Shown here: in pieces, positions 3,397-53,953 of the stretch | How the letters are laid out: every line of letters starts with the position of its first letter | Position numbering within the stretch: position 1 is the stretch's first letter | Source of the DNA: a virus | DNA length: 64,000 nt | Virus record (IMG/VR): IMGVR_UViG_3300045988_128110 | Span: 1-64,000 of that record | Strand: one strand, 5' to 3' | The notes under the pieces: model-generated | The model's input: the letters and a program-made list of their open reading frames with translations, nothing else | Database searches by the model: none | Told to the model about the DNA's origin: nothing | Translations under genes and position numbers: made by a program

Positions 3397-3867
3397 ATGA
3401 AAATTGTAGATAATTTTATATTCTTCTGGGGAGGTTGGTTAAGTAACTTTCATCCTTGTAGAATAGTATTTGGCTCTAAAGTTTTTAAATCATCTGAACA
3501 GCTTTTTATGTATCTTAAAGCTTTACATTTTGGTGATGTAGAAACAGCAGAGAAGATTCTATTAGCAGAGACTCCAAAGGAAGCTAAAAACCTTGGTAGG
3601 GAGGTTAGAAACTTTGATGAGAAATCCTGGAATGAGGTTAAGATTCAGAAAATGTATCTTGCCTTGGAAGGTAAGTTTAGCCAAAATAAAGACTTAATGG
3701 ATAAACTTAAAGACCCAGCATTAGACGGGAAATTCTTTGTTGAAGCATCTCCCTTTGATAGAATCTGGGGTATAGGCTATGATCAAGATCATGCACTTCA
3801 AAACCAATCAAATTGGGGAGAAAATCTACTTGGTAAGACTCTTACCTTTTACAGAGGATCTTTATAA
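3397..3867 (+). CDS. NADAR-domain (YbiA-like) protein, a putative ADP-ribose/NAD-derived N-glycosidase
   Basis: FFWGGWLSNF, a following SSEQ.FM..KA motif, EASP.D.IWGIG; these are the diagnostic NADAR (DUF1768) motifs. Confidence 0.7.
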   Translation: MKIVDNFIFFWGGWLSNFHPCRIVFGSKVFKSSEQLFMYLKALHFGDVETAEKILLAETPKEAKNLGREVRNFDEKSWNEVKIQKMYLALEGKFSQNKDLMDKLKDPALDGKFFVEASPFDRIWGIGYDQDHALQNQSNWGENLLGKTLTFYRGSL

Positions 3868-5616: not shown

Positions 5617-5624
5617 ACTCAATA

Positions 5625-5653
5625 GGCTCTAGTAGAAGTACTAGAGCCTTTTT
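5625..5653 (+). terminator. strong rho-independent terminator (ggctctagta-gaag-tactagagcc followed by TTTTT)
   Basis: 10-bp perfect stem, 4-nt loop, T5 run, 9 nt after the stop of the preceding gene. Confidence 0.75.
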
Positions 5654-5799: not shown

Positions 5800-6102
5800 A
5801 TGAAGAGATGATTCTTAAGAATATTTAGAAGGTTTAATGAACCATCAACTGATAGTTCAAAAGAATTTCCTAAAAAAGTAATTGACTTAGAACAATTTGA
5901 CGATGTATTTATAATTACTAATAAAAAGGTATATAAGGCCTGGGTTATGAAAAGAACCAGTAGACTTCTACAGATTTTTATTTGGGAGTCTAAAAAGGAG
6001 GTAATTATAAATACAATTGGACAAGCTAATTCTAGTGTTATTCCTTTTGGCAAGGATAGCTATTTAATTATAAATAAAAAAGATATATGCGATTACTTGT
6101 AG
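5800..6102 (+). CDS. hypothetical protein (100 aa) with one in-frame TGA; overlaps the pncA-like start
   Basis: ATG at 5800, open to TAG at 6100-6102 with TGA read as Trp; it competes with a minus-strand shadow ORF 5793-6053. Confidence 0.25.
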
Positions 6103-6668
6103 TAGTTGATATGCAAGAAGACTTCATCAGAGGTGCATTAACGGTTCCTGGTGCTGAAGAAATAATTTCTCCTATAGAGAGATTAGTTAAAGAGTATATA
6201 ACAGCAGATGATGCTGTTCTTTTTACTCGGGATACTCATTATGAGCATAGTGATACTAGGGGATTTGGCTACGCTATGACTCGTGAAGGTAGAAATCTTC
6301 CAATTCTTCATTGCGTTTGTGGAACTGAAGGTCATAAGCTTATTAAGGAGTTTAAGCCTTATCTTCGTTCCTGCTATGTAATGGATAAACTAAATAGGTT
6401 TGGATTTATCCAGGATGAGTTTAATGATGCTAAGACAGGTGATGGAGAATATTTATTCGACATCGCTGATTGCATTACAGAAATTACTTTGGTTGGTGTA
6501 GTAACTAATCTTTGTGTTATTTCATGTGCTGTAAGTTTTCAGCAAACATTCCCTGATGCAGATATCATCATAGATGCTTCCTGCTGTCGTTCTAATAATA
6601 ATGAACTTCATAACAAAGCTTTAGATGTTATGGAGGGTTTACAAATGACTATAATTAATCGTTATTAA
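6087..6668 (+). CDS. pncA: isochorismatase-family hydrolase, probably a nicotinamidase (PncA-like)
   Basis: N-terminal LLVVVDMQ.DF motif of the isochorismatase/nicotinamidase family; located next to nadV and nadE. Confidence 0.6.
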   Translation: MRLLVVVDMQEDFIRGALTVPGAEEIISPIERLVKEYITADDAVLFTRDTHYEHSDTRGFGYAMTREGRNLPILHCVCGTEGHKLIKEFKPYLRSCYVMDKLNRFGFIQDEFNDAKTGDGEYLFDIADCITEITLVGVVTNLCVISCAVSFQQTFPDADIIIDASCCRSNNNELHNKALDVMEGLQMTIINRY

Positions 6669-6669
6669 T

Positions 6670-8154
6670 ATGTTTAAACCTTGTGGAGCTCTACTGACTG
6701 ATTTTTATAAACAATGTCATGCAGAGCAATATGACCCTAGCATCACTAAGGTAGTTTCTTACTATGTACCTCGTAAAACTAGGATTCCTGAATTTGATAA
6801 GGTAGTAGTTTTTGGTATTCAAGCATTTATTGAGGAGTATCTGATTGAATACATGAATGAAACTTTCTTTAGTCGTTCTTTAGAAGAAGTTATTGCAGAA
6901 TATGAATTTGTAATTTCTTCTACTATGGGAGCAGACCGTGTTAATTCGGATAAAATTAAAAAGCTTCATGAGTTAGGATATCTTCCTATCGAGATCTGGG
7001 CACTTCCTGAGGGATATAAAGTAGGAATGAATGTCCCCTGTATCGAGATTTCTAATACTAATCCAGAATTTGCATGGTGTACTAATTTCATTGAAACCTT
7101 GATGCTCTCTGAGCTTTGGTATCCAATGTGTGTTGCAACTGCTGTAACTAAATATCGTAGTATCGTAAATGATTTTTATTCTAAAACTTCTGATATTTCT
7201 GGTCGTTCTGCTATTTCTGAGTTCGGATTTAGAAGTTTAGTTGGACTTCATGGCGCTATTAAAGCTTCATGTGGGTTTTTGCTCTCTTTTAATAAGACTG
7301 CGACTATTCCTGGCATTATATATGCTTCAAAGTATTATCATACCCCAATGTCTGTAGTAGGTGGAGGTATGGCTTCTACTGAGCACTCCGTAATGTGTAG
7401 TTCTGCTGCCATTGATGGGGATGAAAAAGTTATGATTCGACGCCTCCTTACTGAGGTCTACCCTAATGGATCATTCTCTATGGTAAGTGATTCCTATGAT
7501 TACTGGAATATTGTCGATGAAATTCTCCCATCTCTTAAGGAAGAAATTCTCAGTAGAAACGGCACTTTGTATGTTCGTGGTGACTCTGGAGATCCTGTAG
7601 AAATTGTAACTGAGACAGTTTTCTCTCTTTGGGAGACTTTTGGAGGTACTGTCAACTCTAAAGGGTATAAAGTCTTAGATCCTCATGTTCGAGCTTTGTA
7701 TGGTGATGGTATCACTCAGTTACGTGCAAAACAGATTTATCAGATTTTGTACGATACGGGATTCTCTGCAGAAAATGTTGCACTTGGTGCAGGAGGATTT
7801 TCTATGCTTTCTTACATGGACGAGTTTGGAAATGTCGATATGTTCTCTCGTGATACATTTAATGTAGCAATTAAGTGTAGCTATGTAGAACAAACCATTG
7901 ATGGAAAAACTAAATCTATTATGGTTTACAAAGATCCTAAAACAGATTCAGGAATGAAGAAGTCCCATAAAGGATGCTGTGCTGTTTTCTACAACCATGT
8001 AACTGGTGAGTTTGATTGTGATGAGGGTATGACACTGAAAGAAGCTCATAATGAGCCTTTTAATTTACTTCGTCCTATCTTTTCAAATGGAAAAATGAGA
8101 GAGCAAACCACTCTCACAGAAATTCGTAGAACTCTTTGGAACGGAGAATTTTAA
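6670..8154 (+). CDS. nadV: nicotinamide phosphoribosyltransferase (NAMPT/NadV)
   Basis: LLTDFYKQCH N-terminus and the overall length and motifs of type II NAPRT/NAMPT. Confidence 0.75.
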   Translation: MFKPCGALLTDFYKQCHAEQYDPSITKVVSYYVPRKTRIPEFDKVVVFGIQAFIEEYLIEYMNETFFSRSLEEVIAEYEFVISSTMGADRVNSDKIKKLHELGYLPIEIWALPEGYKVGMNVPCIEISNTNPEFAWCTNFIETLMLSELWYPMCVATAVTKYRSIVNDFYSKTSDISGRSAISEFGFRSLVGLHGAIKASCGFLLSFNKTATIPGIIYASKYYHTPMSVVGGGMASTEHSVMCSSAAIDGDEKVMIRRLLTEVYPNGSFSMVSDSYDYWNIVDEILPSLKEEILSRNGTLYVRGDSGDPVEIVTETVFSLWETFGGTVNSKGYKVLDPHVRALYGDGITQLRAKQIYQILYDTGFSAENVALGAGGFSMLSYMDEFGNVDMFSRDTFNVAIKCSYVEQTIDGKTKSIMVYKDPKTDSGMKKSHKGCCAVFYNHVTGEFDCDEGMTLKEAHNEPFNLLRPIFSNGKMREQTTLTEIRRTLWNGEF

Positions 8155-8948
8155 TGGAAAAAGAATATAAAAAAATAATATCCTTCCTTAAGGATTACCA
8201 AACTCACACTAATGCTCGTGGTTATGTTCTGGGCATTAGTGGAGGGAAGGATTCTACTATAGTAGCTAAGCTTCTAGTGGATGCTATAGGAAAAGAAAAT
8301 GTATTAGGTGTTTTAATGCCTGATGGGGAGCAAAAGGATATCAGTGATAGTTTAGAAGTATGCAAATATTTAGATATCAGACATATACTAATAAATATTT
8401 CACATCCTTTTACCTCACTATTGAGTTCTATCGAAAGAACCACTCTAGAAAAATCCATAGATGTAGGAATTCCTAATCTTGTTTCAGATGGTTCCCCAAT
8501 TATAATTTCTGATAAAGCTTTAACTAATATTGCACCTCGCATTCGCATGGCAACTCTATATGCGATTGCTCAGTCTTTGGGTTACGGAGTAGCTGGAACA
8601 GGTAACAAGTCCGAAGCATTTATTGGATGGTGTACAAAATGGGGAGATATGGCTTGTGATATTAATCCAATTGCACACTTGACTTGTACAGAAGTTGTAA
8701 AACTGGGAGACTTCATGGAGTTGCCTTATAATTTAGTTCATAAAGTCCCTGCAGATGGATTAACAGGCAGATCTGATGAAGAAAATTTTGGATTTACTTA
8801 TCAAGAGCTTGATGTTCTCATTGAAAAAATGGAGCGATTAGATCGTACAGGACATCTTACGAGTCCATTTACTGAAATTGAATTACAAATCTTAAAATTA
8901 CATGAAGCTGCGTATCACAAAGATCATGTAATTAAAATACATTATTAA
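8136..8948 (+). CDS. nadE: NH3-dependent NAD+ synthetase (NadE)
   Basis: PP-loop GISGGKDST, then GTGNKSE and TKWGD motifs. Confidence 0.8.
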   Translation: MERRILMEKEYKKIISFLKDYQTHTNARGYVLGISGGKDSTIVAKLLVDAIGKENVLGVLMPDGEQKDISDSLEVCKYLDIRHILINISHPFTSLLSSIERTTLEKSIDVGIPNLVSDGSPIIISDKALTNIAPRIRMATLYAIAQSLGYGVAGTGNKSEAFIGWCTKWGDMACDINPIAHLTCTEVVKLGDFMELPYNLVHKVPADGLTGRSDEENFGFTYQELDVLIEKMERLDRTGHLTSPFTEIELQILKLHEAAYHKDHVIKIHY

Positions 8949-8949
8949 T

Positions 8950-9840
8950 ATGGGAAGCGGATCATGGAGTTCTAGCACATATAAAGCTTTTGCTGATAGC
9001 TATACTAAAAAATCCAGAGAAGAAATCTTTCATCAAAGATCTCTACACGAAGAAATGGATCTTACAAAAAGTAAGACACATATTCGAGAATCTAGAGATT
9101 CTGAGGAACACCCAGAATCTCTTCCAGTTTTCATTGCATTAGATGAAACTGGTTCAATGGGTTCAATTCCTGATAAGATGATCAGGGATTATCTTCCGAA
9201 GTTAATGGATTCTATTATTGATTCTATTGGAGTTAAACACCCTCAAATTCTTTTTATGGGAGTGGGAGATCATGAATGTGATTACTACCCGTGTCAGGTA
9301 GGTCAATTCGAATCTTCAACTGTTGCAATTAATCAGTGTCTCTCTAAAATTTATTTGGAGGGTCGTGGTGGAGGTAATAGTGGAGAATCCTACTTACTTC
9401 CTTGGATTATTGCAGGAAATCATACGTCAATTGATAGTTGGGAAAAGCGAAAGCAAAAAGGATTCCTTTTTACAGTTGGTGATGAACCTACTTTGACAAG
9501 AATAAGTAGGGGAACTTTGGCAGCTCTCACTGGAATGGAGTATGAGCGTGATTATACCTGGCAGGAGGCTTATGAACTTGCCTGTGAGAAATATCATGTG
9601 TTTCATATTCATGTTCGACATGGAAGTGAACATTATGATGAGGTAGTAGCTAAACAAATGAAAGAAATTCTTAGAGAAAACTTTATTGTGTGCAAGCCTG
9701 ATGAAGTTGTAGAAGCCATTTGTGAAGCTATGGGTAAAACTCTAAAAGGTAGCTCTTCAGTAATTGAAGAGATTTCTGCAGAAGGAACTGTAGAAAATAC
9801 AGAATCAAAACCTAATATATTTGACATACATCGACGATAA
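8950..9840 (+). CDS. vWA-domain protein (FIALDETGSMGS)
   Basis: DxTGSM MIDAS motif; a second vWA protein in the window. Confidence 0.45.
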   Translation: MGSGSWSSSTYKAFADSYTKKSREEIFHQRSLHEEMDLTKSKTHIRESRDSEEHPESLPVFIALDETGSMGSIPDKMIRDYLPKLMDSIIDSIGVKHPQILFMGVGDHECDYYPCQVGQFESSTVAINQCLSKIYLEGRGGGNSGESYLLPWIIAGNHTSIDSWEKRKQKGFLFTVGDEPTLTRISRGTLAALTGMEYERDYTWQEAYELACEKYHVFHIHVRHGSEHYDEVVAKQMKEILRENFIVCKPDEVVEAICEAMGKTLKGSSSVIEEISAEGTVENTESKPNIFDIHRR

Positions 9841-10934
9841 TGTATAATATTGTAGTGGGTTGTACGTTTGGCGACGAGGGCAAGGGTCAAGTGACTCATG
9901 CCCTCTGTTGCGACGCTAAAAGAAAACATTTAAAACCTCTAGTTGTTAGATTTTCTGGAGGGCATCAAGCAGGGCACACAGTAGTTACTTCGTCTGGAAC
10001 AATGCATATATTTTCTTGCTTTGGGTCTGGAACATTTGCTAAGGCACCTACTTATTGGACGAAACAATGTGTTATGGATCCACTACAATGGATGCGGGAG
10101 CGAGAGGAGTTAGATTTCCTAGGATGTAATATCCCTATCCAATATTTTGATCCATATGTACAAATAACAACTCCTTTTGATGTAATGTTGAATTCTGAAA
10201 GGGGTAAAGGTTCTACAGTAGGGAAAGGAATATGGGAGACTATTCAGAGACAAAGAGAAGGATTAGCTTTATATGTAAAAGATTTAGCTTTTCCTCAAGT
10301 TGTAAAAATGAAGCTCCGATTAATTAGAGAATGGGCGGAAGATAGACTCCAGTTTAAGGAAACTTATTCAAGATTTGCTCATGTTTTCGATAACTTAGAT
10401 TCTTTAGTACATACTTATTGTAAGATTTTTTATCCCAATATAGTATTGGAGGATACGTTATCTAAATTAGCATGGAAAGAAAAGACTTCTGTGATATTTG
10501 AGGGTTCTCAAGGAGTACTTTTGGACCCTAATATTGGATTTTCACATGAATATACTACCCCACTTCCATGTTGTCCATCGTGGAACAATCTCCCATTCTT
10601 TTTAACTGATGATCAACTAATATTTAATTTTGTATATAGATCTTATTTAACAAGACATGGTAAAGGGCCTGTTGGAGATTCTATATTTAAGGAGATTAAT
10701 AACCCTTATGAAACAAATTTAAATAATCCTTTTCAAGGAGAATTTCAAACTTATGAATTCAATAAGGAATTAGTCTTATATGGAATTGATCATGTTAAAT
10801 CACACTTTAATCCTGAATATAAAGTAAGGTTGATTGAAACATGTTGTGACATATGTGTAGGACATGACTTAGGAATTCCTTATAATTACTCTATCAAAAC
10901 CTGCAAAAAGAATTTTGACTCTGTATGCAAATAA
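9840..10934 (+). CDS. purA: adenylosuccinate synthetase-like protein (PurA family)
   Basis: GDEGKGQ P-loop and a SGGHQAGHT motif, matching the PurA GDEGKGK / GGHNAGHT signatures. Confidence 0.6.
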   Translation: MYNIVVGCTFGDEGKGQVTHALCCDAKRKHLKPLVVRFSGGHQAGHTVVTSSGTMHIFSCFGSGTFAKAPTYWTKQCVMDPLQWMREREELDFLGCNIPIQYFDPYVQITTPFDVMLNSERGKGSTVGKGIWETIQRQREGLALYVKDLAFPQVVKMKLRLIREWAEDRLQFKETYSRFAHVFDNLDSLVHTYCKIFYPNIVLEDTLSKLAWKEKTSVIFEGSQGVLLDPNIGFSHEYTTPLPCCPSWNNLPFFLTDDQLIFNFVYRSYLTRHGKGPVGDSIFKEINNPYETNLNNPFQGEFQTYEFNKELVLYGIDHVKSHFNPEYKVRLIETCCDICVGHDLGIPYNYSIKTCKKNFDSVCK

Positions 10935-11731
10935 TTAACTTTTTATACCCAGAAAAGTCAGAAATAAAGTATCGAATTGATACTTATCCTGATTCCCAAT
11001 CCCATCTTGTACTTGAGTCTGAAATGGATAGACGAAAGTCCCTGCTGATCTATACTAGATTATCCAATTTGAATGATATTTGGATTCTAATGCAATTAGC
11101 GGATATTTGTCATCGTCAAGGTATCCAGATTTCCTATCTACAAATAGCTTATTTGTTTGCAGCGCGAACTGATAGATTATTTTCTTTTAATGAGGCATTA
11201 GATTTGGAGCTTGTTAAAAAATGTCTTATCTTTGTACAAGCACAGCAAATTCTAGTACTGGATCCTCATTCTAAGCGTTTGATTACAGAAGGGGTAATTG
11301 ATAATGACTGGCCTGCATTCTTTGCTTTAAAACCAGGTTCTAATATTCCAGAGAATGTTTTATTCCCTGACGAAGGTGCCTATCATCGTTACAGTGAGCT
11401 TTTTGACTTTGATACGACATACTATGCTACAAAGCATAGGATTTCAAGAGATAAGTTAGAGGTAAAATTACCTTCTAGAATAAAGCCAAATACTTCTATT
11501 CTAGTTTTTGATGACTTATGTGATGGTGGAGGAACTTTCTTTGCAATTTATAAAGCATTACAAGACATGGGAGTAACTGATGTGCATTTACGTGTCACAC
11601 ATGCTATCCAAAAAGAACCTTTAGTAAAGTTGTCAGAACTTTACAAAACAATAACAATTACCAATTCTTATAAGGATTGGGATAAAGAAGAACTTCCAAA
11701 CAATATAAAAGTAATAAAAGTTTATGAATAA
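10925..11731 (+). CDS. prs: phosphoribosyltransferase-domain protein, probably ribose-phosphate pyrophosphokinase (PRPP synthetase)-like
   Basis: VFDDLCDGGGTF PRPP-binding motif; sits next to nadV as in phage NAD salvage cassettes. Confidence 0.5.
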   Translation: MQIINFLYPEKSEIKYRIDTYPDSQSHLVLESEMDRRKSLLIYTRLSNLNDIWILMQLADICHRQGIQISYLQIAYLFAARTDRLFSFNEALDLELVKKCLIFVQAQQILVLDPHSKRLITEGVIDNDWPAFFALKPGSNIPENVLFPDEGAYHRYSELFDFDTTYYATKHRISRDKLEVKLPSRIKPNTSILVFDDLCDGGGTFFAIYKALQDMGVTDVHLRVTHAIQKEPLVKLSELYKTITITNSYKDWDKEELPNNIKVIKVYE

Positions 11732-12074
11732 ATTTAATGAAATTCTGAGTGCTACTGGAACTGCAGTACTCAAGAAACGTGCTGAAATCATCAATGCTGA
11801 TGCCCGCGAAGCAGCTAAGGATCAGGTTAATCTCATTGAGAAAGAGATTCGTCAGATTAAGTCCAAGATTATGAATCTGGAGGATCTGTCGATTAAATCG
11901 ACCGAATCACTGGTTGTAGGTACGGACTTTAAGGCAGATGAGTGGGTAACTCAGATGTTCAAGCTTCGTGATGACCTGCGCAACGCTGAAATCTGTCTGG
12001 AAATTGCTCAGAATATTTATAATGAGTATTTCACAGAACTTCCTGAAGTAGACTGTGATAAGAAAGCAGAATAG
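11724..12074 (+). CDS. hypothetical coiled-coil protein (116 aa), GC-richer codon usage
   Basis: Complete ORF followed directly by a strong terminator. Confidence 0.4.
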   Translation: MNKFNEILSATGTAVLKKRAEIINADAREAAKDQVNLIEKEIRQIKSKIMNLEDLSIKSTESLVVGTDFKADEWVTQMFKLRDDLRNAEICLEIAQNIYNEYFTELPEVDCDKKAE

Positions 12075-12080
12075 CTTTAC

Positions 12081-12102
12081 AGGCGGAGTAAATCCGCCTT
12101 TT
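12081..12102 (+). terminator. rho-independent terminator (aggcgga-gtaaa-tccgcct followed by TTTT)
   Basis: 7-bp GC-rich stem plus a T run, 7 nt after the stop codon. Confidence 0.75.
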
Positions 12103-12174
12103 GGTTCTATAGTTTAATTGGAAAAATTTTAGAATACGAATCTAAAGATGAGAGTTCGAATCTTTCTAGAACCT
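12103..12174 (+). tRNA. tRNA-Arg (anticodon ACG)
   Basis: Acceptor ggttcta/tagaacc, anticodon arm ttaga-atacgaa-tctaa, T-arm gagag-ttcgaat-ctttc; no CCA. Confidence 0.8.
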
Positions 12175-12191
12175 CAAATATTATTAATGCT

Positions 12192-12512
12192 ATGAAAACA
12201 AATTCTTTTTTTGTTGTTTATTATAATAATGGGGAATTAAAAAAATATGATATAATTCCTTACTTAGTTGATAAGTATGAATCTTTGTCTAGAAAAAATC
12301 GTCCAAATCTTAGACTTTATAACTCGGTGAAGGAATTTATTGTTAAAGAATGCCGTTATCAATTTTGGTCTCGATGTGAGTATGAAATTATTATATCTTC
12401 ATGGCCTAATGAGATCAATAAGAAAAAGATAGATGTTTATGATCAGATAGTACTAAATATTGATATTATTACTAAAATATTAACCTCCTATCTTACTATG
12501 TTAGGTTATTAA
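12192..12512 (+). CDS. hypothetical protein (106 aa)
   Basis: Complete ORF between two tRNA genes. Confidence 0.35.
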   Translation: MKTNSFFVVYYNNGELKKYDIIPYLVDKYESLSRKNRPNLRLYNSVKEFIVKECRYQFWSRCEYEIIISSWPNEINKKKIDVYDQIVLNIDIITKILTSYLTMLGY

Positions 12513-12520
12513 TTTATTTT

Positions 12521-12594
12521 AGGGAGTTGGCGCAATTGGTTAGCGCAGGAATCTTATACATTCAAGGTTATGAGTTCGAGTCTCATATTCCCTA
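12521..12594 (+). tRNA. tRNA-Ile (anticodon UAU, reads AUA)
   Basis: Acceptor agggagt/attccct, D-arm gcgc-aattggtta-gcgc, anticodon loop cttatac, T-arm atgag-ttcgagt-ctcat. Confidence 0.65.
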
Positions 12595-12787
12595 CCTATG
12601 AAAACTGTTTTATATAGAATACAATCAATTGAAGCTCCCGAAGGAGAGGGGTTTCGATATAATTCATTAAGAACATTATCTGATACAAAAGTGAATGAAG
12701 AAATGTGCTTAAGGAATGAATTTGGAGATCATTATTTAATTAATGATCCTGATTACTGAATTTGTGAGATTTTAAAGGAAATAGAAG

Positions 12788-13849
12788 ATGATGTATAGTT
12801 TAGATGAAATAGGTATTTTACCTAGTTCAAAAGCCACGGATATTACAAGTCGTAGTGAGTGTAGTCCTTTAGGAGACTTAGGAACATATCCTATTTTCGT
12901 TTCTCCTATGACATCCGTTATTGATGAATCAAATTATCAATTTTTTACAAAGGCTAATGTTCTTCCAATTATTCCAAGACGTGTAGATAATTTACAGTTT
13001 AGACTTAATGCATGTAACCATGTTTGGTGTGCCTTTAGTTTAAAGGAATTTGAAATGTACTTTTGTGAAGGAGAAGTCTCTGATGAATGTCCTTTAGTAC
13101 TTATTGATCTGGCTAATGGTCATATGAAGAAAATTTATGATTTAGTTAAAAAAGCTAAAGAAAGATGGAGTACTATTATCATAATGGTTGGAAATATCGC
13201 ACACCCAGATATTTATTGGGAATGTTGTGACGCAGGAGTAGATTATGTTCGTGTAGGTATTGGAACAGGTAGTGTATGTACTACAGGTGTAAAAACTGGA
13301 ATACATGCTTCGATGGAATGGTTACTACGAAAGTTATCCACCTGTAAGACACTAATTAATGCTTCTCCTAAACCTATGAAAGCTCCTAAAATTATTGCAG
13401 ATGGAGGCATTTCTACAATAGATAGAGCTATAAAGTGTTTAGCTTTAGGTGCTGATTATGTTATGATGGGCAAAATGTTTGCACAATGTGAGGAGGCTTG
13501 CGGGCAAACTCGGACAAAAGGACTAGATGATAATCCTGAGACGCTTAGATATTTTATGTCTCTAACTAAAGCAGACAGAGAACGAGTTATTGGACTGTAC
13601 CCCAAAGAAAGACTATACTACGGAATGGCAAGTGAACGTGGTCAAAAGGACATTTCTGATACTAAAAAGGCTGAAGAAGGAATCAAGATTTGGGTTCCTG
13701 TTGAATGTACTCTTGAGTCTTTACTTTCTCAATTTGATTCCGCATTAAGATCTGCTATGTCTTATACTGGATGTAGAACTCTTCAAGAGTTTAAGAATGT
13801 AGAATGGGAATATATGTCTCCTTCTGAAAGAAATGCTTATTACAAATAA
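12788..13849 (+). CDS. IMP dehydrogenase/GMP reductase family protein
   Basis: GIGTGSVCTTG catalytic-loop motif (compare GIGPGSICTT) and a TIM-barrel layout. Confidence 0.65.
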   Translation: MMYSLDEIGILPSSKATDITSRSECSPLGDLGTYPIFVSPMTSVIDESNYQFFTKANVLPIIPRRVDNLQFRLNACNHVWCAFSLKEFEMYFCEGEVSDECPLVLIDLANGHMKKIYDLVKKAKERWSTIIIMVGNIAHPDIYWECCDAGVDYVRVGIGTGSVCTTGVKTGIHASMEWLLRKLSTCKTLINASPKPMKAPKIIADGGISTIDRAIKCLALGADYVMMGKMFAQCEEACGQTRTKGLDDNPETLRYFMSLTKADRERVIGLYPKERLYYGMASERGQKDISDTKKAEEGIKIWVPVECTLESLLSQFDSALRSAMSYTGCRTLQEFKNVEWEYMSPSERNAYYK

Positions 13850-15421: not shown

Positions 15422-15853
15422 ATGAGAACACTTCTTTGGGTAGATGATGCTCGTAATCCAATGGAAGATGATTGGATGAATTTTAGTCCAATTGGTAGAA
15501 ATTGTAAAGTAATATGGGCTCAATCTTACCAAGAAGCAATTGATTTTCTTGAGAAAGAATGGCCTGATGCAATTTGTCTAGATCATGATTTAGGGGAAGA
15601 GAAATCTGGATATGATATAGCTAAGTATATTGTGGATCGGTGTATTGATGAGGGTAAAAAACTTCCTGAGTTTGCTAGTCAGTCTGCTAATCCTGTTGGA
15701 AGGGAAAATATTATTACATTATTGAGCAATTATAAGAGACATGAACTTCTAGATCATATTCAAAAAGTTATTGATTATAAACATGATTGGCGGAAAGCAG
15801 TACAAGAAGGAAAAAGTTTGCCAAAATGGAATGGAAAAATTAAAGTCAATTAA
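15422..15853 (+). CDS. hypothetical protein, possibly a CheY-like receiver-fold domain (LLWVDD ... LDHDLG)
   Basis: Acidic N-terminal DD pair and an LDxD motif at about residue 55, as in receiver domains; weak. Confidence 0.3.
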   Translation: MRTLLWVDDARNPMEDDWMNFSPIGRNCKVIWAQSYQEAIDFLEKEWPDAICLDHDLGEEKSGYDIAKYIVDRCIDEGKKLPEFASQSANPVGRENIITLLSNYKRHELLDHIQKVIDYKHDWRKAVQEGKSLPKWNGKIKVN

Positions 15854-16585: not shown

Positions 16586-16670
16586 GGAGAGTAATCCTTG
16601 ATGGTGATAGGGCTTGCCTGCTAAGCAATGTGTGCCTTTCTGGCATGTGGTTCGATTCCACTGCTCTCCG
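16586..16670 (+). tRNA. tRNA-Ser (anticodon GCU), class II
   Basis: Acceptor ggagagt/gctctcc, discriminator G, anticodon loop ctgctaa, long variable arm (tgcc/ggca), T-arm with ttcgatt. Confidence 0.7.
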
Positions 16671-16694
16671 CAAATAAATTAATATTAAAAGGAT

Positions 16695-17603: not shown

Positions 17604-17693
17604 GCGCCTGACCCGAGGCGGGGGGGAGGTCTTCAAAACCTCTATGCTGTTGGTCCATCTTCAGCCCTGTGGGATCGTTACCTACCAGGCGTG
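17604..17693 (+). tRNA. candidate TGA suppressor tRNA (anticodon UCA) with an atypical 90-nt architecture (long variable region, short D-region, A54/U58-swapped T-loop, discriminator G)
   Basis: Acceptor gcgcctg/caggcgt (7 bp incl. one GU), anticodon arm (g)gaggt-cttcaaa-acctc(t) with UCA at 17633-17635, T-arm gtggg-atcgtta-cctac, 25-nt variable region; no standard 76-nt tRNA can be fitted. Confidence 0.5.
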
Positions 17694-17709
17694 CAAATAA
17701 GAAGTAAAT

Positions 17710-24912: not shown

Positions 24913-25488
24913 ATGAAATTAAAAACTGAGGCACAGGAATCAACAGAGAAATTAGATATTAAGAGAAGGAAGTGTACTTTATCTGAGAATATTCAAAAAC
25001 TTTTACTGCGGCAATTAAAGCACGAACTGTATAATCATAATCTCTATATGAGTTTTTCTAACTTTTATGGAGTGCAAGGATTAGCTGTTCTAGAACAGTA
25101 TTATAAAGAACGTGCAGATGAAGAATATCATCATCATTCATGGATTCGTACATATATGAATGAGAATGATGCAGCATATATTTACCCTGATATTCCTGCC
25201 ATTAGTGAAACTTTTGAAGATAATGTAACGCCATTTAAGTTAACTGTAGATAAGGAGATTCAAACAACTCAACTTATTTATGAAATTGTGGATGCAGCTC
25301 TTGAAGAGGGGGACTGGGCCACTTTTAATTGGCTAAATGGAGATAACGATGAAACTGGACGACTTGTTCAAGAACAAGTTGAAGAAGAATCAATTTCACG
25401 TACTGCTCTAGATATTGCTATGGAGGAAGGTTCTTGGCTTCGTAAGGAGAAATCCATTATGAATGCTTATAAAGGAGATGTTGATTAA
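24913..25488 (+). CDS. ferritin-like superfamily protein
   Basis: LKHELYNHNLYMSFSNFY...EEYHHHSW pattern of helical di-iron ligand residues (E, ExxH). Confidence 0.45.
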   Translation: MKLKTEAQESTEKLDIKRRKCTLSENIQKLLLRQLKHELYNHNLYMSFSNFYGVQGLAVLEQYYKERADEEYHHHSWIRTYMNENDAAYIYPDIPAISETFEDNVTPFKLTVDKEIQTTQLIYEIVDAALEEGDWATFNWLNGDNDETGRLVQEQVEEESISRTALDIAMEEGSWLRKEKSIMNAYKGDVD

Positions 25489-35830: not shown

Positions 35831-36739
35831 ATGAAAGATTGGAAAGCATGGGGAATTAAGAAAAGAGTATTCCCAGATAAGAATTATAATGCAATTTGGC
35901 ATGATTTAAAGACTGTTCGATTAGGTTCTGGGCAAGCTAAAGAATTAGATTACCCAGAATTCTACGATGTTGGAATTAATACTCTTTGTAATCTAGGATG
36001 CCCATTTTGTTATGTTGGAGCCACATCTAAAGGAGTAAATCATGATCATATATGTGAAAAGGCTAAATTTTTCTTTGGCAACATGACTGAGAATGAGAAA
36101 CCTTTTCAGATTGCAATTGGTTCTACAGGAGAACCTACAATTCATCCTGAGTTTTGTGAGTTTCTCAAAACAATATATAGTTTGGGGATCGTTCCTAACT
36201 ATACAACTAATGGAATCTCAATAGCCAAATATGATGGTAATGCAGAAGAAATTTTAGCAGCCACTTCCAAATATGTAGGAGGAGTTGCTGTTTCAGCAAA
36301 TACATGGAATCCAGAAATAGATTCTGCTTGGAGAAGTGCTGTAGTACTTCTGCATGAATTTGGGAACACTAATATCAATATTCATTATATAATTAGTGAT
36401 AAAAAGTCTGTTGATGACTTTATTAAAATTTATAATCAATATAAAGATATTGTTCTATACTTTGTACTACTTCCTTTGATGCCTTCTGGTCGGTCATCAA
36501 ATAAATACTCGCAAGAAGCATTTGAATATCTTCTTGAACAAGATATAGACTTTAAACAAGTTGCATTTGGAGCACATTTCTATGACTCTTTATGTAATCA
36601 AAATAAGTTAGGATGCTATTTATATCCTCCTGAAAGTCTATCTAAAAACCTTATTTTAGGAGAGAAGATTATGGTTACTCCAAGTTCCTTTAATCTTACT
36701 CCTATTAAGGAAATTAATTTCAATTATGAAAACTTGTAA
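35831..36739 (+). CDS. radical SAM enzyme (CxxxCxxC), possibly with a partial SPASM/twitch-like C-terminal Cys motif
   Basis: CNLGCPFCY cluster-binding motif, IGSTGEPTIHPEF SAM-binding GGE-like motif, C-terminal CNQNKLGCYLYP. Confidence 0.7.
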   Translation: MKDWKAWGIKKRVFPDKNYNAIWHDLKTVRLGSGQAKELDYPEFYDVGINTLCNLGCPFCYVGATSKGVNHDHICEKAKFFFGNMTENEKPFQIAIGSTGEPTIHPEFCEFLKTIYSLGIVPNYTTNGISIAKYDGNAEEILAATSKYVGGVAVSANTWNPEIDSAWRSAVVLLHEFGNTNINIHYIISDKKSVDDFIKIYNQYKDIVLYFVLLPLMPSGRSSNKYSQEAFEYLLEQDIDFKQVAFGAHFYDSLCNQNKLGCYLYPPESLSKNLILGEKIMVTPSSFNLTPIKEINFNYENL

Positions 36740-36917
36740 AGTAATTTTTAGAGATGAAACTTTAGCACAAGACAGTATCGTGGATTGTTGATTAAACGAT
36801 GTTGGAGATTTAGAGTTTAAATTGTACTTTGATCCTCCAGTAACAGAAACTTCTGACCTTGGTTCATTAGCTGGACAGTTATGCTATAGTTTCTGTAAAG
36901 CTTTAAAGGATGAATAA
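36726..36917 (+). CDS. small hypothetical protein (63 aa) with one TGA
   Basis: ATG at 36726 to TAA at 36915-36917. Confidence 0.3.
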
Positions 36918-38007
36918 AATCATATTGTTAAATGCAATTGTTGGAAGTCAGGCGTATGGAACAAATACGCCTGACTCTGACATTGATACAAAGGGAGTAT
37001 ATCTTCAGGATCCTATGGAAGTCTTAGGGATGGAATATAAGGAACAGATTAACCTGGATAAGGATGCCTGCTTATATGAAGTTAGAAGATTTTTGCAACT
37101 ACTTTGTAGTGGAAATCCTACAATGTTGGAACTTTTGTATATTCCTGAAGATTGTATTCTAGAAAAGCACCCTTTGTGGGATATTATATCGAAACATAGA
37201 AGTGCATTTCTAACTAAACAATGCTACTTTAGTTTTGCTGGTTATGCATACCAACAAGTAGAAAAGGCTAAAGGGCTAAATAAGAAAATGAATTGGGAGG
37301 CTGATAAAGTAAAAAGAAAAAGGCCAATTGATTTTCTAAAAGTTATTGATAACTGTAAAACATATCCTCTTGCTGAATGGTTAAAGCGTAATCAGATGCA
37401 TGAGGATTGCTGTGGACTTGCTAAAGTCAATGATTCAGAGAATCTTTATGCTTTGTGGTATGATGACATTAAAGAAATGTCTAAGACCAAAGACTTGTCT
37501 AATCCTAGATATAAAGATTGGAAAGATTTTGGATATAAAGGAGTTTGTAATGATGTTGAATTACTACTTTCAGAGATTCCAGAATGGCAAATTCCTATGT
37601 GTAGGTGCAACCTTTACTACAATAGGAATGGTTGGGGAGAGCATTGTAAAGACTATAATTCCTACCAAACTTGGCTGAAAGAAAGAAACACACAAAGATA
37701 TGTAGATATTCAAAATCATGGACAAAAGATCGATGGCAAAAATATGTTACATTGTATAAGATTATTACAATGTGCTAATGATATCTTAGATCTTAAAACT
37801 ATTAATGTTAGAGTTAAGAACCCTGAATATTTACTATCTATTAGACATGGAAAAGTATCCTTAGAAGAATTACTTGAATCAGCAAGAAATCAAATTAAAG
37901 GGTTGAAGCAAAAATTTGAAGACAGTGATTTACCACATTCAGTAGATCCAGATTTAGTCAAATCAATATTGAATGAAATAAGAAAAGAATCATTAAATTT
38001 GTTTTAA
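36910..38007 (+). CDS. Pol-beta-superfamily nucleotidyltransferase (GS-x5-G...SDxD motif), 365 aa
   Basis: VGSQAYGTNTPDSDIDTKGVY is the hG[GS]x9-13Dh[DE]h NTase signature seen in class-I CCA-adding enzymes, SMODS and CD-NTase-like families; the rest of the protein is unassigned. Confidence 0.5.
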   Translation: MNKIILLNAIVGSQAYGTNTPDSDIDTKGVYLQDPMEVLGMEYKEQINLDKDACLYEVRRFLQLLCSGNPTMLELLYIPEDCILEKHPLWDIISKHRSAFLTKQCYFSFAGYAYQQVEKAKGLNKKMNWEADKVKRKRPIDFLKVIDNCKTYPLAEWLKRNQMHEDCCGLAKVNDSENLYALWYDDIKEMSKTKDLSNPRYKDWKDFGYKGVCNDVELLLSEIPEWQIPMCRCNLYYNRNGWGEHCKDYNSYQTWLKERNTQRYVDIQNHGQKIDGKNMLHCIRLLQCANDILDLKTINVRVKNPEYLLSIRHGKVSLEELLESARNQIKGLKQKFEDSDLPHSVDPDLVKSILNEIRKESLNLF

Positions 38008-39411: not shown

Positions 39412-40176
39412 ATGAAAGAAAAAATTAGATATGATTTAGTTCCAGCACATGGGATTAAAGAAATATCTCGTGTCCTAACTAGAAAGTTGGACACATATGA
39501 AGAAAATCAGTGGAAAAAAGGGATGAAATGGACAGAAGTTCTTTCATCTCTTAAGAAGCATCTCAACGAATTTGAGATGGGAAATGATTACACTGAAGAA
39601 GGACTGCTCAATATAGCAGAGGTAGCCAATAATGCATTAATTCTATGCGAATTCTATCATATTTATCCCCAAGGGGATGATAGAATTATGGCTCCCACAA
39701 CAAAACCAATAGTTGCCTTAGACTTAGATAATGTCATCTTTGATTTCAATGGTGCATATGAAGCTAAGTTTGGCACTAAAATGAATCCTTATTGGAAAGC
39801 TAATTATGAAATGTCAGAGCATTTAAAGCAGTTAGAAAAAGATAAGGATTTTTGGGTAAATATCCCAATTCTACATAAACCTTGTTTCGAAGTAGATTAT
39901 TATATAACTGCTCGGAATATTCCAGTTGAATGGATTGAAGAAAGTTTACAAAAGAATGGCCTTCCATGTGCTCCAGTTCATGTTGTCCCTTGGGATCAAA
40001 GTAAATTGGCACATTTACGTGATTTAAAAATTGATATATTTATCGACGATAAATATGAAAATTATAAGGAAGCAACTGATGCTGGAATCTTTTGCTACTT
40101 AATGGATGCTCCTCATAATCAATACTATAATGTTGGTCATAGGAGAATTTATAACCTTGATATACCAATTAAATAG
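39412..40176 (+). CDS. 5'(3')-deoxyribonucleotidase (HAD, NT5C family) with an N-terminal helical extension
   Basis: VALDLDNVIF DxDxV phosphatase motif I and IFIDD motif; the N-terminal 90 aa is unassigned. Confidence 0.5.
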   Translation: MKEKIRYDLVPAHGIKEISRVLTRKLDTYEENQWKKGMKWTEVLSSLKKHLNEFEMGNDYTEEGLLNIAEVANNALILCEFYHIYPQGDDRIMAPTTKPIVALDLDNVIFDFNGAYEAKFGTKMNPYWKANYEMSEHLKQLEKDKDFWVNIPILHKPCFEVDYYITARNIPVEWIEESLQKNGLPCAPVHVVPWDQSKLAHLRDLKIDIFIDDKYENYKEATDAGIFCYLMDAPHNQYYNVGHRRIYNLDIPIK

Positions 40177-42923: not shown

Positions 42924-43653
42924 TGGCAAATCAACACGAATTAATTCAAAAGATTTTCTTTCAACAGAAGACTATGTAAAGCCTTTTATTGAAGAAATGA
43001 GTAAATTCACTTCTACTTATAGAATAGAAGCTATCCCTCCCTCTCAAGTTACTACAGATAAAGAAGGAGAGGATATTACCTATAACAGGGTATTAGTGCA
43101 GGCAATCATGCCTACTCAAATAGATGAGTATAATGAAATATATACTTTGGCATATTCTTTAGACATAAGAAGACCTATTTATAAAGTATATAAAGCAATG
43201 TTTAATAATACTACTAATTCAATAATTGCATTTGATCCAAATTGATTGGTAGTTAATGAGATTAAACCAGCAGAGACCTTTACACTTCCAATTCAAAACT
43301 TAATGAGTTTTACAAGTGACTTTGAAGTTAAACTCAAGAAATATAAAAACGATACTTTATCTACTAAAGAAAATGATCGTTATGTAAGACTAGGTTCTTG
43401 GATTGAAAAATGTCAGTTTGCAGTATGGCAAAATGACTTTGGAGGAAAGGTTAAATGGTCTCCAACAAATGTTGTTAAGGCTTATAATAACATTTATATA
43501 AATACATCAAGTGATTATTATGTTGGTGATAAGGACTCATCTGTAATTAATACATATAATTCATTTGCACAGTTAATTGCAGATGATAAAAAAGATATTT
43601 GCAATAAGTTTGAGAAAACTATGCTAATTAATTTATTATTAGAATTAAAGTAA
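42895..43653 (+). CDS. hypothetical protein (252 aa); TGA-joined
   Basis: ORFs 42895-43245 and 43246-43653 share a frame and are separated only by a TGA. Confidence 0.4.
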
Positions 43654-52182: not shown

Positions 52183-52614
52183 ATGGATTTAAATATTTAT
52201 GTAGAGAAATTGTATCAGGCTTGAATTAAATATAAAGGAGTTAGAATTCTTGTAGACTATGATGATACAATTAAACCGTATAATACAGCTTCTGAAGCTC
52301 TTTGTAAAGACATAATTAATACTTTAATTGAAGCCCAAGAACTAGGAGCTACGGTAGTTCTATGGACCTGTAGATCTGGGACCCGTTTAAAGGAAGCTGT
52401 AAATTATTGTAAATCTGTAGGATTAGAATTTACTGATATCAATCCTGTAGAACCTTTCTTACCAGGGTATTCTATGAAAGCCTATGGTAATATACTACTT
52501 GATGATAAAGCTGGATTAGAACAAGCTTTAATTACATTAAAATTAGCATTATACAAATATAAAAAGTTCGTTTATGAAATTAACGAGAAGCAAAGATTGC
52601 AATCCTAACTACCT
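52183..52614 (+). CDS. hypothetical protein (143 aa) with one TGA
   Basis: ATG at 52183 to TAA at about 52612-52614; overlaps the start of the RNA ligase gene. Confidence 0.3.
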
Positions 52615-53953
52615 TGCTAAGATTGTACAAATTGATTCATTTAGACCTCACCCTAATGCTGAGCGTCTAAAGTTAGCAACTGTTGATGGATATATAATTT
52701 CCACATCAATTGATTCTGCAGAGGGAATCTATGTATATTTTCCTGTTGAATGTGTTATCAATTCCGACTTTTTGAAGGTTAATAATCTTTACAGAAAAGC
52801 AGACCTTAATCTTGATCCTACTAAACAAGGATTTTTTGAAGAGTCTGGTCGAGTAAAATGTATTAAACTAAGAGGACTTGCATCAGAAGGGCTTATCATG
52901 CCTATCTATGAGTTGTGTAAATTTGCTGGAGAAGGAATTGCAGAACCTATAGATTCTGTTGAAATGTCAAAATTAGTAGGAACAGAATTTGATACTGTAA
53001 ATGATAAATTGTTTGTCTGGAAGTATGTAATTCCTACTAAAACTTCTGGTGGAGGAATTAATGGCTCAGCTAAAGAAAAGAAGAAAGTTCTTAATATAGT
53101 TGACGATCAATTCCATTTTCACATTGATACAGAACAGCTACAGAAAAATATTCATAAGGTTCAGCCAACTGACATCATTAATATCTCTTGGAAAGAGCAT
53201 GGAACAAGTTTGATCCTATGTAACCTACTTACTAAGAAAAATCTTTCTCTGAAGGAAAAAATTGCTAAATTCTTTGGAGTTCCTGTATCTGAAAGTGAAT
53301 ATAAGAAATTCTGTTCATCTAGAAAGGTTATCAAAAACCCTGAACTAAATCCTGGTATGACCAAAGGATATTACGATTGTGATATTTGGAATCTTGCCTT
53401 CGAAGTATTAAAGGATTACTTATCTAAGGGGCTTTCTATCTACGCAGAAATTGTGGGATATATGCCTACAGGATCTATGATTCAATCTGGATATGATTAT
53501 CAATGTATCTATGATCCTAAAACTTATGAGTATTCAAAAATGACTCCTAAACAAATGTATGATGCAAAACTGTTTGACATTATTGTTTACAGAATTACAT
53601 ACACTAATGTAGAGGGAAGAGTTTTTGAATTCTCTACTCAACAAATGAAGACCTTCTGTGAAAAGTATGGAATTCATTGTATTAAAGAGCTCTACTATGG
53701 AACAGCACAACAACTATTCCCTGAGTTGAATCCCAATGAGCATTGGCATGAAAATTTCTTGCAAGCATTGAGAGATAAATATTTAGAGAGAGAGTCTGTT
53801 CTTTGTAACAACAAAGTTCCCGAAGAGGGAATTGTACTTCGTAGAGAAGTAAGTGAAATTGATGTTTATAAACTTAAGTCAGTAGCATTCCTTGAGAGAG
53901 AAACTAAGATGCTCGATAAGGGGGAAGCTGACATTGAATCAGGACAAGAATAA
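52574..53953 (+). CDS. RNA ligase (Rnl2-like nucleotidyltransferase) with an N-terminal extension
   Basis: Motif I KEHGTS (KxHGT), motif IV EGIVLR, motif V YKLK. Confidence 0.6.
   Translation: MKLTRSKDCNPNYLAKIVQIDSFRPHPNAERLKLATVDGYIISTSIDSAEGIYVYFPVECVINSDFLKVNNLYRKADLNLDPTKQGFFEESGRVKCIKLRGLASEGLIMPIYELCKFAGEGIAEPIDSVEMSKLVGTEFDTVNDKLFVWKYVIPTKTSGGGINGSAKEKKKVLNIVDDQFHFHIDTEQLQKNIHKVQPTDIINISWKEHGTSLILCNLLTKKNLSLKEKIAKFFGVPVSESEYKKFCSSRKVIKNPELNPGMTKGYYDCDIWNLAFEVLKDYLSKGLSIYAEIVGYMPTGSMIQSGYDYQCIYDPKTYEYSKMTPKQMYDAKLFDIIVYRITYTNVEGRVFEFSTQQMKTFCEKYGIHCIKELYYGTAQQLFPELNPNEHWHENFLQALRDKYLERESVLCNNKVPEEGIVLRREVSEIDVYKLKSVAFLERETKMLDKGEADIESGQE

Follow-up and report, generated by a model that had tools for sequence, protein, structure and literature searches.

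A phage NARP1 operon predicted to run via nicotinate and carrying an inserted vWA/PurA-like module

We analysed a 64,000-nucleotide stretch of viral DNA, positions 1 to 64,000 of IMG/VR record IMGVR_UViG_3300045988_128110 (hereafter the window). Our best overall explanation of what reads as a seven-gene operon at positions 6087–12074, and one that we consider reasonably likely, is that it is a version of the phage NAD+-restoring pathway NARP1 rerouted via nicotinate, with a second module of a vWA-domain protein and a PurA-like enzyme inserted in the same operon. Its core would act as NARP1 counter-defence, in which NAD+ is rebuilt from the products of cleavage by NADase effectors. An earlier, sequence-only reading of this DNA had treated six genes here as a single, complete replenishment module for NAD+ and purine nucleotides, built around a NAMPT of the NadV type and a partner supplying phosphoribosyl pyrophosphate (PRPP), and had guessed that it may help to counter NAD-depleting defence systems. 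The guess about defence proved right, and the pair is very probably NARP1; the single module gave way to a composite of three parts, namely a variant form of NARP1 together with PncA and NadE, an inserted triad of vWA, PurA-like and small proteins, and a separately transcribed gene for a GMP reductase (GMPR)-like enzyme.

The Adps and Namat genes and their operon

The operon lies on the + strand and begins with a PncA-type nicotinamidase of 193 residues (6087–6668; Pfam Isochorismatase, E = 1e-20), followed by a 494-residue Namat-clade enzyme (6670–8154; Pfam NAPRTase and NAMPT_N, and NCBIfam PRK09198 at 435 bits for a cut-off of 405) and a 264-residue, single-domain, NH3-dependent NAD+ synthetase, NadE (8154–8948; Pfam NAD_synthase, E = 9e-54). 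Next come a 296-residue vWA/MIDAS-domain protein (8950–9840; no Pfam match, the fold being read from an AlphaFold2 (AF2) model) and a 364-residue PurA-family enzyme (9840–10934; Pfam Adenylsucc_synt, E = 6e-30, over positions 1–280 of the 416 in the profile). The last two genes encode Adps, of 268 residues (10925–11731; ribose-phosphate diphosphokinase models at E = 1e-18, below their curated cut-offs, and PHROG 619 at E = 4e-38), and a small protein of 116 residues that is the third member of the triad (11724–12074; no Pfam match). A terminator-like hairpin with an 11-bp stem and a T tract at 5624–5649 (+ strand) closes the upstream unit and forms the left boundary, a second hairpin at 12081–12099 (+ strand) ends the operon, and the junctions between the genes are TAATG, TAATATG or overlaps of 8–10 nt; from these features we read the seven genes as one translationally coupled operon.

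Searches with hidden Markov models from Pfam, NCBIfam and PHROG bore out all six families named in the sequence-only reading (these genes apart from those for the 296- and 116-residue proteins, plus the GMPR-like gene downstream), including the PurA-like and Prs-like assignments that it had itself considered the easiest to refute. All six genes are real and lie on the + strand where it had placed them, but it had omitted the 296-residue and 116-residue proteins, two small variable open reading frames (ORFs) and the boundaries of the operon.

In NARP1, Adps converts ADP-ribose (ADPR) and ATP into the pyrophosphorylated product ADPR-PP, and Namat joins ADPR-PP and nicotinamide into NAD+; it is these two enzymes that phage gene pairs annotated as "Prs + Nampt" encode (Osterman et al. 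2024, bioRxiv 10.1101/2024.02.11.579819). The system is defined by membership of both proteins in their clades and by the two genes lying no more than ten genes apart, and it is present in ~4% of sequenced phages (Osterman et al. 2024), so the earlier restriction of such cassettes to a few large phages was too narrow. In a neighbour-joining tree, the Prs-like protein of the window nests among the Adps proteins of Bas63, SPbetaL1 and FADO, which are experimentally validated and stand on both sides of it, and the split of Prs from all the rest has a bootstrap value of 100/100. When aligned with Prs, it is missing the N- and C-terminal segments, and its DDLCDGGGTF takes the place of the DDMIDTGGT of Prs. 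Its closest relatives, at 33–37% identity, are found in the crAss-like phages cr85_1 and DAC15 and in Lak megaphages (Lak-A2), and cr85_1, DAC15 and Lak-A2 are all marked "Yes" for a Namat within ten genes in Table S1 of Osterman et al. 2024.

The NAMPT-like protein likewise groups with the Adps-associated Namats, at 100/100 against the KVP40-type, Nmnat-associated Nampts (neighbour-joining tree), and it is 35–42% identical to Namats and 28–29% identical to the Nampts of NARP2. Its top PDB match is 9w5x at 372 bits, with human NAMPT at 194 bits; 9w5x is apparently the Namat of SPbetaL1, because its termini match the cloning primers for that protein. The catalytic residues K162 of Adps and R306 of Namat were shown to be essential in the SPbetaL1 system (Osterman et al. 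2024), and their counterparts in the window proteins are K170 and R303. Three genes separate Namat from Adps. On the basis of this placement in the Adps and Namat clades, we are highly confident that the pair is NARP1 and not a KVP40-type NadV with a PRPP supplier, as it had first been read; the clade of the NAMPT-like protein excludes NARP2. The window system resembles described NARP1 in the clades of its two core proteins, in the spacing of their genes, which is within the ten-gene limit, and in the conserved K162 and R306 positions, and its expected role is likewise to rebuild NAD+ after cleavage by SIR2, TIR or SEFIR effectors.

The Namat base pocket and its association with PncA and NadE

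To compare the base pocket of the window Namat with that of human NAMPT, we aligned it to what we take to be the human reference sequence, on which all 21 literature-numbered residues fall on the expected letter. In human numbering, the window Namat carries the changes H191S, D192E, G217K, D219A, S241G and A244S, and it keeps D16, Y18, F193, R196, H247, D279, R311, D313, G353 and D354; over the window protein and its relatives together, the pattern is H191S/G, G217K/N/R, D219A, S241G and A244S. In NAMPT, Asp219 hydrogen-bonds nicotinamide and sets the substrate specificity (PMC7096376; PMC9322656). This acidic, nicotinamide-recognising residue of NARP1 is absent from the window Namat and from all of its 80 closest IMG/VR relatives, which have Ala, and the equivalent position is Asp or Glu in the Namat of Bas63 and in 80 canonical loci. 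The same pattern (Ala219; Lys, Asn or Arg217; Gly241; Ser244) occurs in two other lineages of gut phages, MT835544 and Phass-1, both of which have PncA and NadE; the order in the Phass-1 operon is nicotinamidase, "Prs", "Nampt", one further gene and NadE.

We then compared two IMG/VR sets, the 80 loci closest to the Ala-type Namats and the 80 closest to canonical Namats, scoring neighbours within 8 kb. The Ala-type loci have PncA in 78/80, NadE in 76/80, both in 75/80 and Adps in 78/80, and the canonical loci, where the residue is Asp in 63 and Glu in 17, have PncA in 0/80, NadE in 0/80 and Adps in 75/80. At 70% identity, the Ala-type loci form eight clusters, across which the four genes stay together in three orders: Adps-Namat-NadE-PncA (35 loci), PncA-Adps-Namat-NadE (32 loci) and the order of the window (7 loci). 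PncA homologues are found in just 10 of 50,697 deposited phage records.

The top PDB match of the window PncA is yeast Pnc1 (2h0r), to which the Asp-Lys-Cys catalytic triad and the Asp-x-His...His(HCV) metal site all align through the motifs VVDMQ(E/N)DF, TRD(T/W)H, HCV and (M/V)DK and a Cys loop that is NLCV in the window and EYCV in Pnc1. The NCBIfam PncA model gives it 27.5 bits, below the cut-off of 174. From these motifs, it is predicted to convert nicotinamide to nicotinate and NH3. The window NadE scores 183 bits on TIGR00552 (cut-off 64), consists of one PP-loop ATP-pyrophosphatase domain without a glutaminase domain, and has NH3-dependent NadE enzymes as its top PDB matches; it is predicted to convert nicotinic acid adenine dinucleotide (NaAD), NH3 and ATP to NAD+. 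The homologue of Namat is in turn predicted to be a nicotinate ADPR-transferase that makes NaAD.

From the observed gene content, clade membership, pocket substitutions and association with PncA and NadE, we infer substrates for a four-step route via nicotinate and NaAD that has, in our judgement, slightly better than an even chance of being correct. PncA would convert the nicotinamide released by the effector to nicotinate and NH3, and Adps would pyrophosphorylate ADPR with ATP to give ADPR-PP. The altered Namat, with Ala in place of Asp and Lys two residues before it, would then join nicotinate and ADPR-PP into NaAD, and the NH3-dependent NadE would use NH3 and ATP to turn NaAD into NAD+. 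The four enzymes would in this way close a cycle from ADPR and nicotinamide to NAD+ without any host enzyme, and the NH3 released by PncA would match what NadE needs.

Several other accounts of these genes have to be weighed against the nicotinate route. The simplest is generic metabolic boosting like that of the KVP40 NadV/NatV cassettes, with PncA, NadV, NadE and a PRPP synthetase forming a classical NAD salvage pathway and PurA and GuaB/C topping up purines. The family-level assignments all hold, as this account expects, and Namats do make nicotinamide mononucleotide from PRPP in vitro if ADPR-PP is absent (Osterman et al. 2024), but we consider it very unlikely: the Prs-like and NAMPT-like proteins belong to the Adps and Namat clades and not with Prs and the NARP2 Nampts, the Adps of SPbetaL1 gave no measurable product in a Prs-activity assay and is not a Prs in its authors' view (Osterman et al. 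2024), there is no Nmnat among the 30 window ORFs scanned, and the PurA-like protein lacks the aspartate and IMP-phosphate ligands (see below). It is also unlikely, although less so, that the phage runs a Preiss-Handler pathway on PRPP, where the Ala-type enzyme would make nicotinate mononucleotide from nicotinate and PRPP, host NadD would convert it to NaAD, phage NadE would finish, and Adps would either supply PRPP or be irrelevant. The association with PncA and NadE and the D219A change fit the use of nicotinate equally well whichever the ribosyl donor, and Namat and Nampt each accept both donors to some extent (Osterman et al. 2024). However, 78/80 of the Ala-type loci have an Adps, which is of the ADPR-specific clade, the enzyme is nested within Namat, which prefers ADPR-PP, and NadD is in none of the operons, so this pathway would depend on host NadD where the ADPR-PP route needs no host enzyme.

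Another account, which we likewise give only a small chance, is that the Namat homologue still takes nicotinamide, or takes both bases, and that PncA and NadE are a side branch that might rescue nicotinate made by host PncA or clear surplus nicotinamide to some other end, for instance to ease product inhibition of NAD-consuming enzymes of the phage. The loss of Asp219 could broaden specificity instead of switching it, and the D219S mutant of human NAMPT uses both bases. Canonical NARP1 runs on nicotinamide (Osterman et al. 2024). Against this account, the changes at five pocket positions occur as a set that is fixed across the clade, a phage nicotinamidase would compete with a nicotinamide-dependent Namat, and an association of 75/80 versus 0/80 suggests obligate coupling.

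The nicotinate route itself has points that weigh against it. The Ala-type Namats form one main clade within Namat plus the long-branched Phass-1, monophyly of all Ala-type sequences has a bootstrap value of 31/100, and the association with PncA and NadE is largely a clade-level one, which may reflect only one or two evolutionary events. The proposed use of nicotinate would hang on one specificity residue, characterised in human NAMPT and not in Namat. A phage nicotinamidase destroys the substrate of a canonical Namat, and therefore the model stands or falls on the specificity switch. The trees are neighbour-joining trees with bootstrap on small samples, with a Prs outgroup that is actinobacterial only, and the analysis covers 64 kb of a genome of ~175 kb, so an Nmnat or NadD may be encoded elsewhere.

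The window differs from described NARP1 in several ways: its Namat pocket is remodelled (Ala at the Asp219 equivalent plus changes at four other positions), it is obligately tied to a nicotinamidase and an NH3-dependent NAD synthetase, three genes are inserted between the core genes, and its transferase step is predicted to give NaAD and not NAD+. There is a precedent for accessory enzymes that pre-process substrates in NARP1 operons in NARP1-AP, with its Macro-domain phosphatase Adpp (bioRxiv 10.64898/2026.01.28.702374), but the accessories of the window are PncA and NadE, on the pyridine side, together with the vWA/PurA-like triad, and there is no Macro gene in the window operon, although the triad-bearing operons of Flavobacterium have one. 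Like NARP2 (KVP40 Nampt with Nmnat) and NARP3 (PnuC with NadR; PMC13464706), the window system would be a phage pathway of NAD+ restoration, and NARP2 also uses a NAMPT-family enzyme; unlike them, it has an enzyme outside the Nmnat-associated Nampt clade, and the window yielded neither an Nmnat nor a NadR or PnuC. With the Preiss-Handler pathway (PncA-PncB-NadD-NadE), it shares PncA as the first step, NadE as the last step and deamidated intermediates, but Adps and a Namat-clade transferase replace PncB and NadD, and the ADP-ribosyl part would come from ADP-ribose and not from PRPP and ATP. The literature that we searched on NARP1, its Macro-phosphatase extension and NARP3 describes no NARP1 operon that contains PncA or NadE. 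While NARP1 as such has been described before, the PncA/NadE-coupled version with an altered pocket is undescribed in that literature, as is the embedded triad.

The vWA, PurA-like and small-protein triad

The second module, the vWA protein and the PurA-family enzyme, is placed between NadE and Adps. The vWA protein has 4,678 homologues, and its family has an invariant DxTGS MIDAS motif (D65-x-T67-G68-S69). A sequence search of the vWA family against the PDB gave no match, and we therefore took the fold from structure prediction: the AF2 model has a confidence score (pLDDT) of 86 and matches integrin beta-I and vWA domains at a Foldseek probability of 1.0. The AF2 model of the PurA-like protein has a pLDDT of 90, and its top Foldseek folds are bacterial PurA enzymes at TM scores of 0.68–0.72, with PurZ lower. 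Over 77 family members, the PurA-like enzymes keep GDEGKG (with Asp13), His41, Gln224 and Thr239, and they carry N38Q, T129V/C, loss of R143 (G/H/F), V273H (76/77), T301Q (76/77), a variable R303 (E/T/S/K) and K331C/H. Going by the E. coli enzyme, we take T301 and R303 to be ligands of L-aspartate and T129 and R143 to be ligands of the IMP 5'-phosphate.

The window enzyme resembles PurA and PurZ in its fold, the GDEGKG P-loop, His41 and Gln224, with Asp13 as in PurA. It differs from PurA in lacking the T301, R303, T129 and R143 ligands and in having an invariant His for V273, and from both in always being paired with a vWA protein; the reading as a plain adenylosuccinate synthetase, which had overlooked this partner, is not borne out. 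The NCBIfam PurA equivalogs score it far below their cut-offs (84 versus 402). It differs from PurZ in keeping Asp13, which is Ser in PurZ (the S-2L enzyme has GSTGKG, with Ser for the catalytic Asp13; PMC8342488), and it reaches 27.9 bits on the PurZ model NF038379, with a cut-off of 300. A reading in which PurZ and the MazZ-like gene at 39412–40176 indicate a Z-genome with 2-aminoadenine DNA was set aside on these grounds, since Asp13 is kept, the PurZ model failed and the fold is closer to PurA. Judged by these residues, the enzyme is best filed neither as adenylosuccinate synthetase nor as PurZ: its phosphotransfer core is kept and its substrate sites are altered, and a different substrate is therefore to be expected.

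To examine the distribution of the triad, we fetched 69 distant viral loci with the vWA alignment and counted bacterial neighbours in the best 80 of at least 588 loci. The vWA component is encoded in at least 442 stretches of viral DNA and at least 588 of bacterial DNA. In 67/69 of the viral loci, the gene immediately after the vWA gene is the PurA-like one, the two exceptions ending at contig edges, and the PurA-like gene also follows in 71/79 bacterial loci of the best-80 set; among cultured phages, the pair is found in Vibrio phage phiKT1024, Rhizobium phage RHph_TM30 and the Mycobacterium Bixzunavirus Mikro. Homologues of the 116-residue protein are encoded upstream of the vWA gene, at a distance of <0.7 kb, in 35/69 viral and 39/80 bacterial loci. 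Directly upstream of the vWA gene is its usual place, and in the window it is displaced downstream of Adps. In 28/80 bacterial loci (L284–L359; Dyadobacter, Hymenobacter, Niastella and Saprospiraceae), a protein of ~290 residues replaces the small partner; one representative of this alternative partner has an HPDK motif that recalls a J domain, and it has no Pfam match. In the literature that we searched, we found no description of the vWA/PurA pairing.

The neighbours of the best 80 bacterial loci include NrtR (15), NADAR (12), Macro (10), Adps (5) and Namat (3). NrtR is an ADP-ribose-responsive regulator of NAD genes. On Flavobacterium chromosomes, the order is NrtR, Adps, small protein, vWA, PurA-like, NADAR, Macro and Namat, where the Namat is of the canonical Asp type and both PncA and NadE are absent. 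The triad is also interleaved with NARP1 genes in the family of the window and in two further loci (L025 and L271). We dropped a reading of the triad as unrelated to NAD once the bacterial scan had turned up NrtR, Adps, NADAR, Macro and Namat as its neighbours. On the other hand, 66/69 of the distant viral loci have no PncA, Namat, NadE or Adps detected within 10 kb, and therefore the link between the triad and NAD is not universal. The triad is usually alone, yet it is built into NARP1 or ADP-ribose operons in at least two unrelated settings.

That the triad works in NAD or ADPR metabolism is, in our estimate, nearly an even call. The PurA-like enzyme would then activate a 6-oxopurine-like lactam on a different substrate in the service of the NAD/ADPR pathway. 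A more specific proposal, which is doubtful, is that the triad is an undescribed enzyme system of NAD+/ADP-ribose conflict that is needed alongside NARP1, in which phosphoryl activation of the lactam oxygen would be followed by amination, where the substrate would not be IMP and the nucleophile would not be free aspartate. Candidate substrates include a hypoxanthine- or guanine-containing dinucleotide or a base bound to a macromolecule.

A competing view of the PurA-like enzyme involves the gene for the IMPDH/GMPR-superfamily enzyme of 353 residues at 12788–13849 on the + strand (Pfam IMPDH, E = 3e-39). It lies beyond the 12081–12099 terminator and the tRNA genes, outside the operon, as a separate transcription unit. 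Its best NCBIfam model is the GMP reductase PRK05458, at 131 bits for a cut-off of 344, its top PDB match is B. anthracis GuaC (1ypf), it has the Cys loop GIGTGSVCTT, and it has no CBS domain. Scores for IMPDH are close to those for GuaC, and the protein is below every curated cut-off; from its GuaC-like architecture, it is probably a GMP reductase. Homologues occur in crAss-like phages, Lak phages and other huge phages, and in cr108_1 the gene adjoins that for thymidylate synthase.

In the competing view, the PurA-like and GMPR-like enzymes convert G to A nucleotides (GMP to IMP to adenylosuccinate to AMP) for an AT-rich genome, with no role in NAD metabolism. The G+C content (GC) of the window is indeed low, at ~33%, the GMPR-like gene is directly downstream of the vWA/PurA-like pair in two loci (L098 and L101), its crAss homologue lies among genes for dNTP synthesis, and D13, H41 and Q224 are conserved in the PurA-like protein. 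We nevertheless consider this conversion improbable, since T301Q, the variable R303, T129V/C and the loss of R143 remove the known ligands of aspartate and the IMP phosphate, the conversion does not account for the vWA and small proteins as obligate partners, the triad is also found in high-GC and bacterial contexts and in NrtR/NADAR/Macro/NARP1 operons, and the GMPR-like gene is absent from 66/69 distant viral and 79/80 bacterial triad loci. We favor a triad that acts on another substrate; for the GMPR-like enzyme, the most likely role would be general management of the nucleotide pool, and it is plausible that it balances the purine pool for an AT-rich genome.

Genome context and significance

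All genes of the window are on the + strand, as in large phages. An identical NAMPT-like protein occurs in 34 blocks of the metagenome collection, on contigs of up to 172 kb, related IMG/VR contigs are 141–178 kb long, those with the operon measure ~150–178 kb, and megablast against deposited (GenBank) phages gave no nucleotide match to the window; the phage is uncultured and known from metagenomic contigs alone. The gene set and its order are kept in 18 near-identical metagenomic contigs, and the order is kept also in relatives with a PurA-like protein that is just 44–48% identical, one of which carries homing endonucleases between the genes.

Within the same phage population, there are deletion variants. 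In one contig (L123), PncA and Namat are followed by the GMPR-like gene, and homologues of NadE, vWA, PurA-like and Adps were not detected; in another (L018), 37 residues of the vWA protein and 212/364 of the PurA-like protein are all that is left. Some genomes can therefore do without the accessory part of the operon. Some called proteins (P0007, P0018 and P0129) fuse the N-terminus of Namat to PurA-like or vWA sequence. The module is also mosaic, with NadE alleles that are 62–71% or 96–100% identical and PncA alleles that are ~60% or >92% identical in otherwise near-identical contigs (L001–L018), which suggests that related phages have recombined. A perfect 12/12 sigma-70 consensus (TTGACA, 16 nt, TATAAT) at 9821–9848, in the 3' end of the vWA gene and overlapping the start codon of the PurA-like gene, may be an internal promoter for the PurA-like, Adps and small genes.

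Beyond the terminator, tRNA-Arg(ACG) at 12103–12175 and tRNA-Ile(TAT) at 12521–12596, both on the + strand, were found by ARAGORN and Rfam alike, in agreement with the tRNA genes named in the sequence-only reading. The tRNA-Ile gene is flanked by a 106-residue ORF at 12192–12512, which is present in some related contigs and missing from others, and by a 53-residue ORF at 12598–12759, which is in all of them. An Rfam scan of positions 1–22000 gave tRNAs only. ARAGORN also reports tRNA-Ser(GCT) and "tRNA-SeC(TCA)" at 16586–16671 and 17604–17694, where the Rfam tRNA model is below its gathering score at both; the latter could be a TGA-suppressor-like tRNA or a false positive. Related gut phages, Phass-1 among them, use recoded stop codons. 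The PADLOC defence models gave no meaningful match among the ten proteins tested.

Upstream of the operon, another transcription unit encodes a NADAR-domain protein (3397–3867, + strand; Pfam NADAR, E = 3e-41) and then a 563-residue DUF2828/DUF7788 protein (to 5616) that is a PHROG "RNA-binding protein", is TROVE/vWA-like and has the MIDAS motif DTSGSMG. The two genes lie as a pair directly upstream of the operon in the family of the window and in L021, and in Vibrio phage phiKT1024 a NADAR and a TROVE protein flank the vWA/PurA-like pair, with NADAR adjoining the PurA-like gene. A 537-residue SPFH/Band-7 protein is encoded at 1212–2825, 5 kb upstream, and the triad has Band_7 genes close by in L019, L024 and L026. 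The purA gene of E. coli K-12 (L277) is immediately downstream of hflK-hflC, which encode SPFH proteins; the proximity of Band_7 and purA may be a coincidence or a trace of the origin of the triad. The contig L024 has the triad (with a small protein of 117 residues) beside a Nudix protein, a NARP2-type Nampt with an Asp-type pocket and its Band_7 gene, and therefore the triad can accompany NARP2-like genes too.

Further along, the window has an RNA-repair and nucleotide-sanitising set made up of a cREC_REC receiver (15422–15853), an RlaP nucleotidyltransferase (36910–38007), the MazZ-like dATP/dGTP diphosphohydrolase already mentioned, whose C-terminus is weakly NT5C-like, and an RNA ligase (52574–53953). 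There are also a ferritin-like protein (24913–25488), a radical-SAM protein (35831–36739) and a ribonucleotide reductase (43653–45896). A family-A DNA polymerase domain at 57172–58344 is in an ORF of only 390 residues that matches profile positions 42–379 of 381; this may be a split polymerase, or a separate gene may supply the exonuclease part.

NAD+ depletion is among the commonest outcomes of bacterial immunity, and NARP1 is the main known phage remedy for it. A NARP1 routed via nicotinate, if true, would add a new enzymatic reaction, nicotinate and ADPR-PP to NaAD, and would show that the pathway is adjusted by phages to the hosts they infect or to the counter-measures of those hosts; speculative rationales are hosts with high nicotinamidase activity, where nicotinamide is deamidated fast, or the retention of charged nicotinate in the cell. 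With the change from Asp to Ala as a simple sequence rule, the two kinds of operon can be told apart in metagenomes. Because the triad is found repeatedly inside operons with genes for NrtR, NARP1, NADAR and Macro proteins, it gives a tangible starting point in the search for a step that is missing from the handling of ADP-ribose or NAD, and if both the nicotinate route and the role of the triad are true, a single operon would hold two new biochemical steps.

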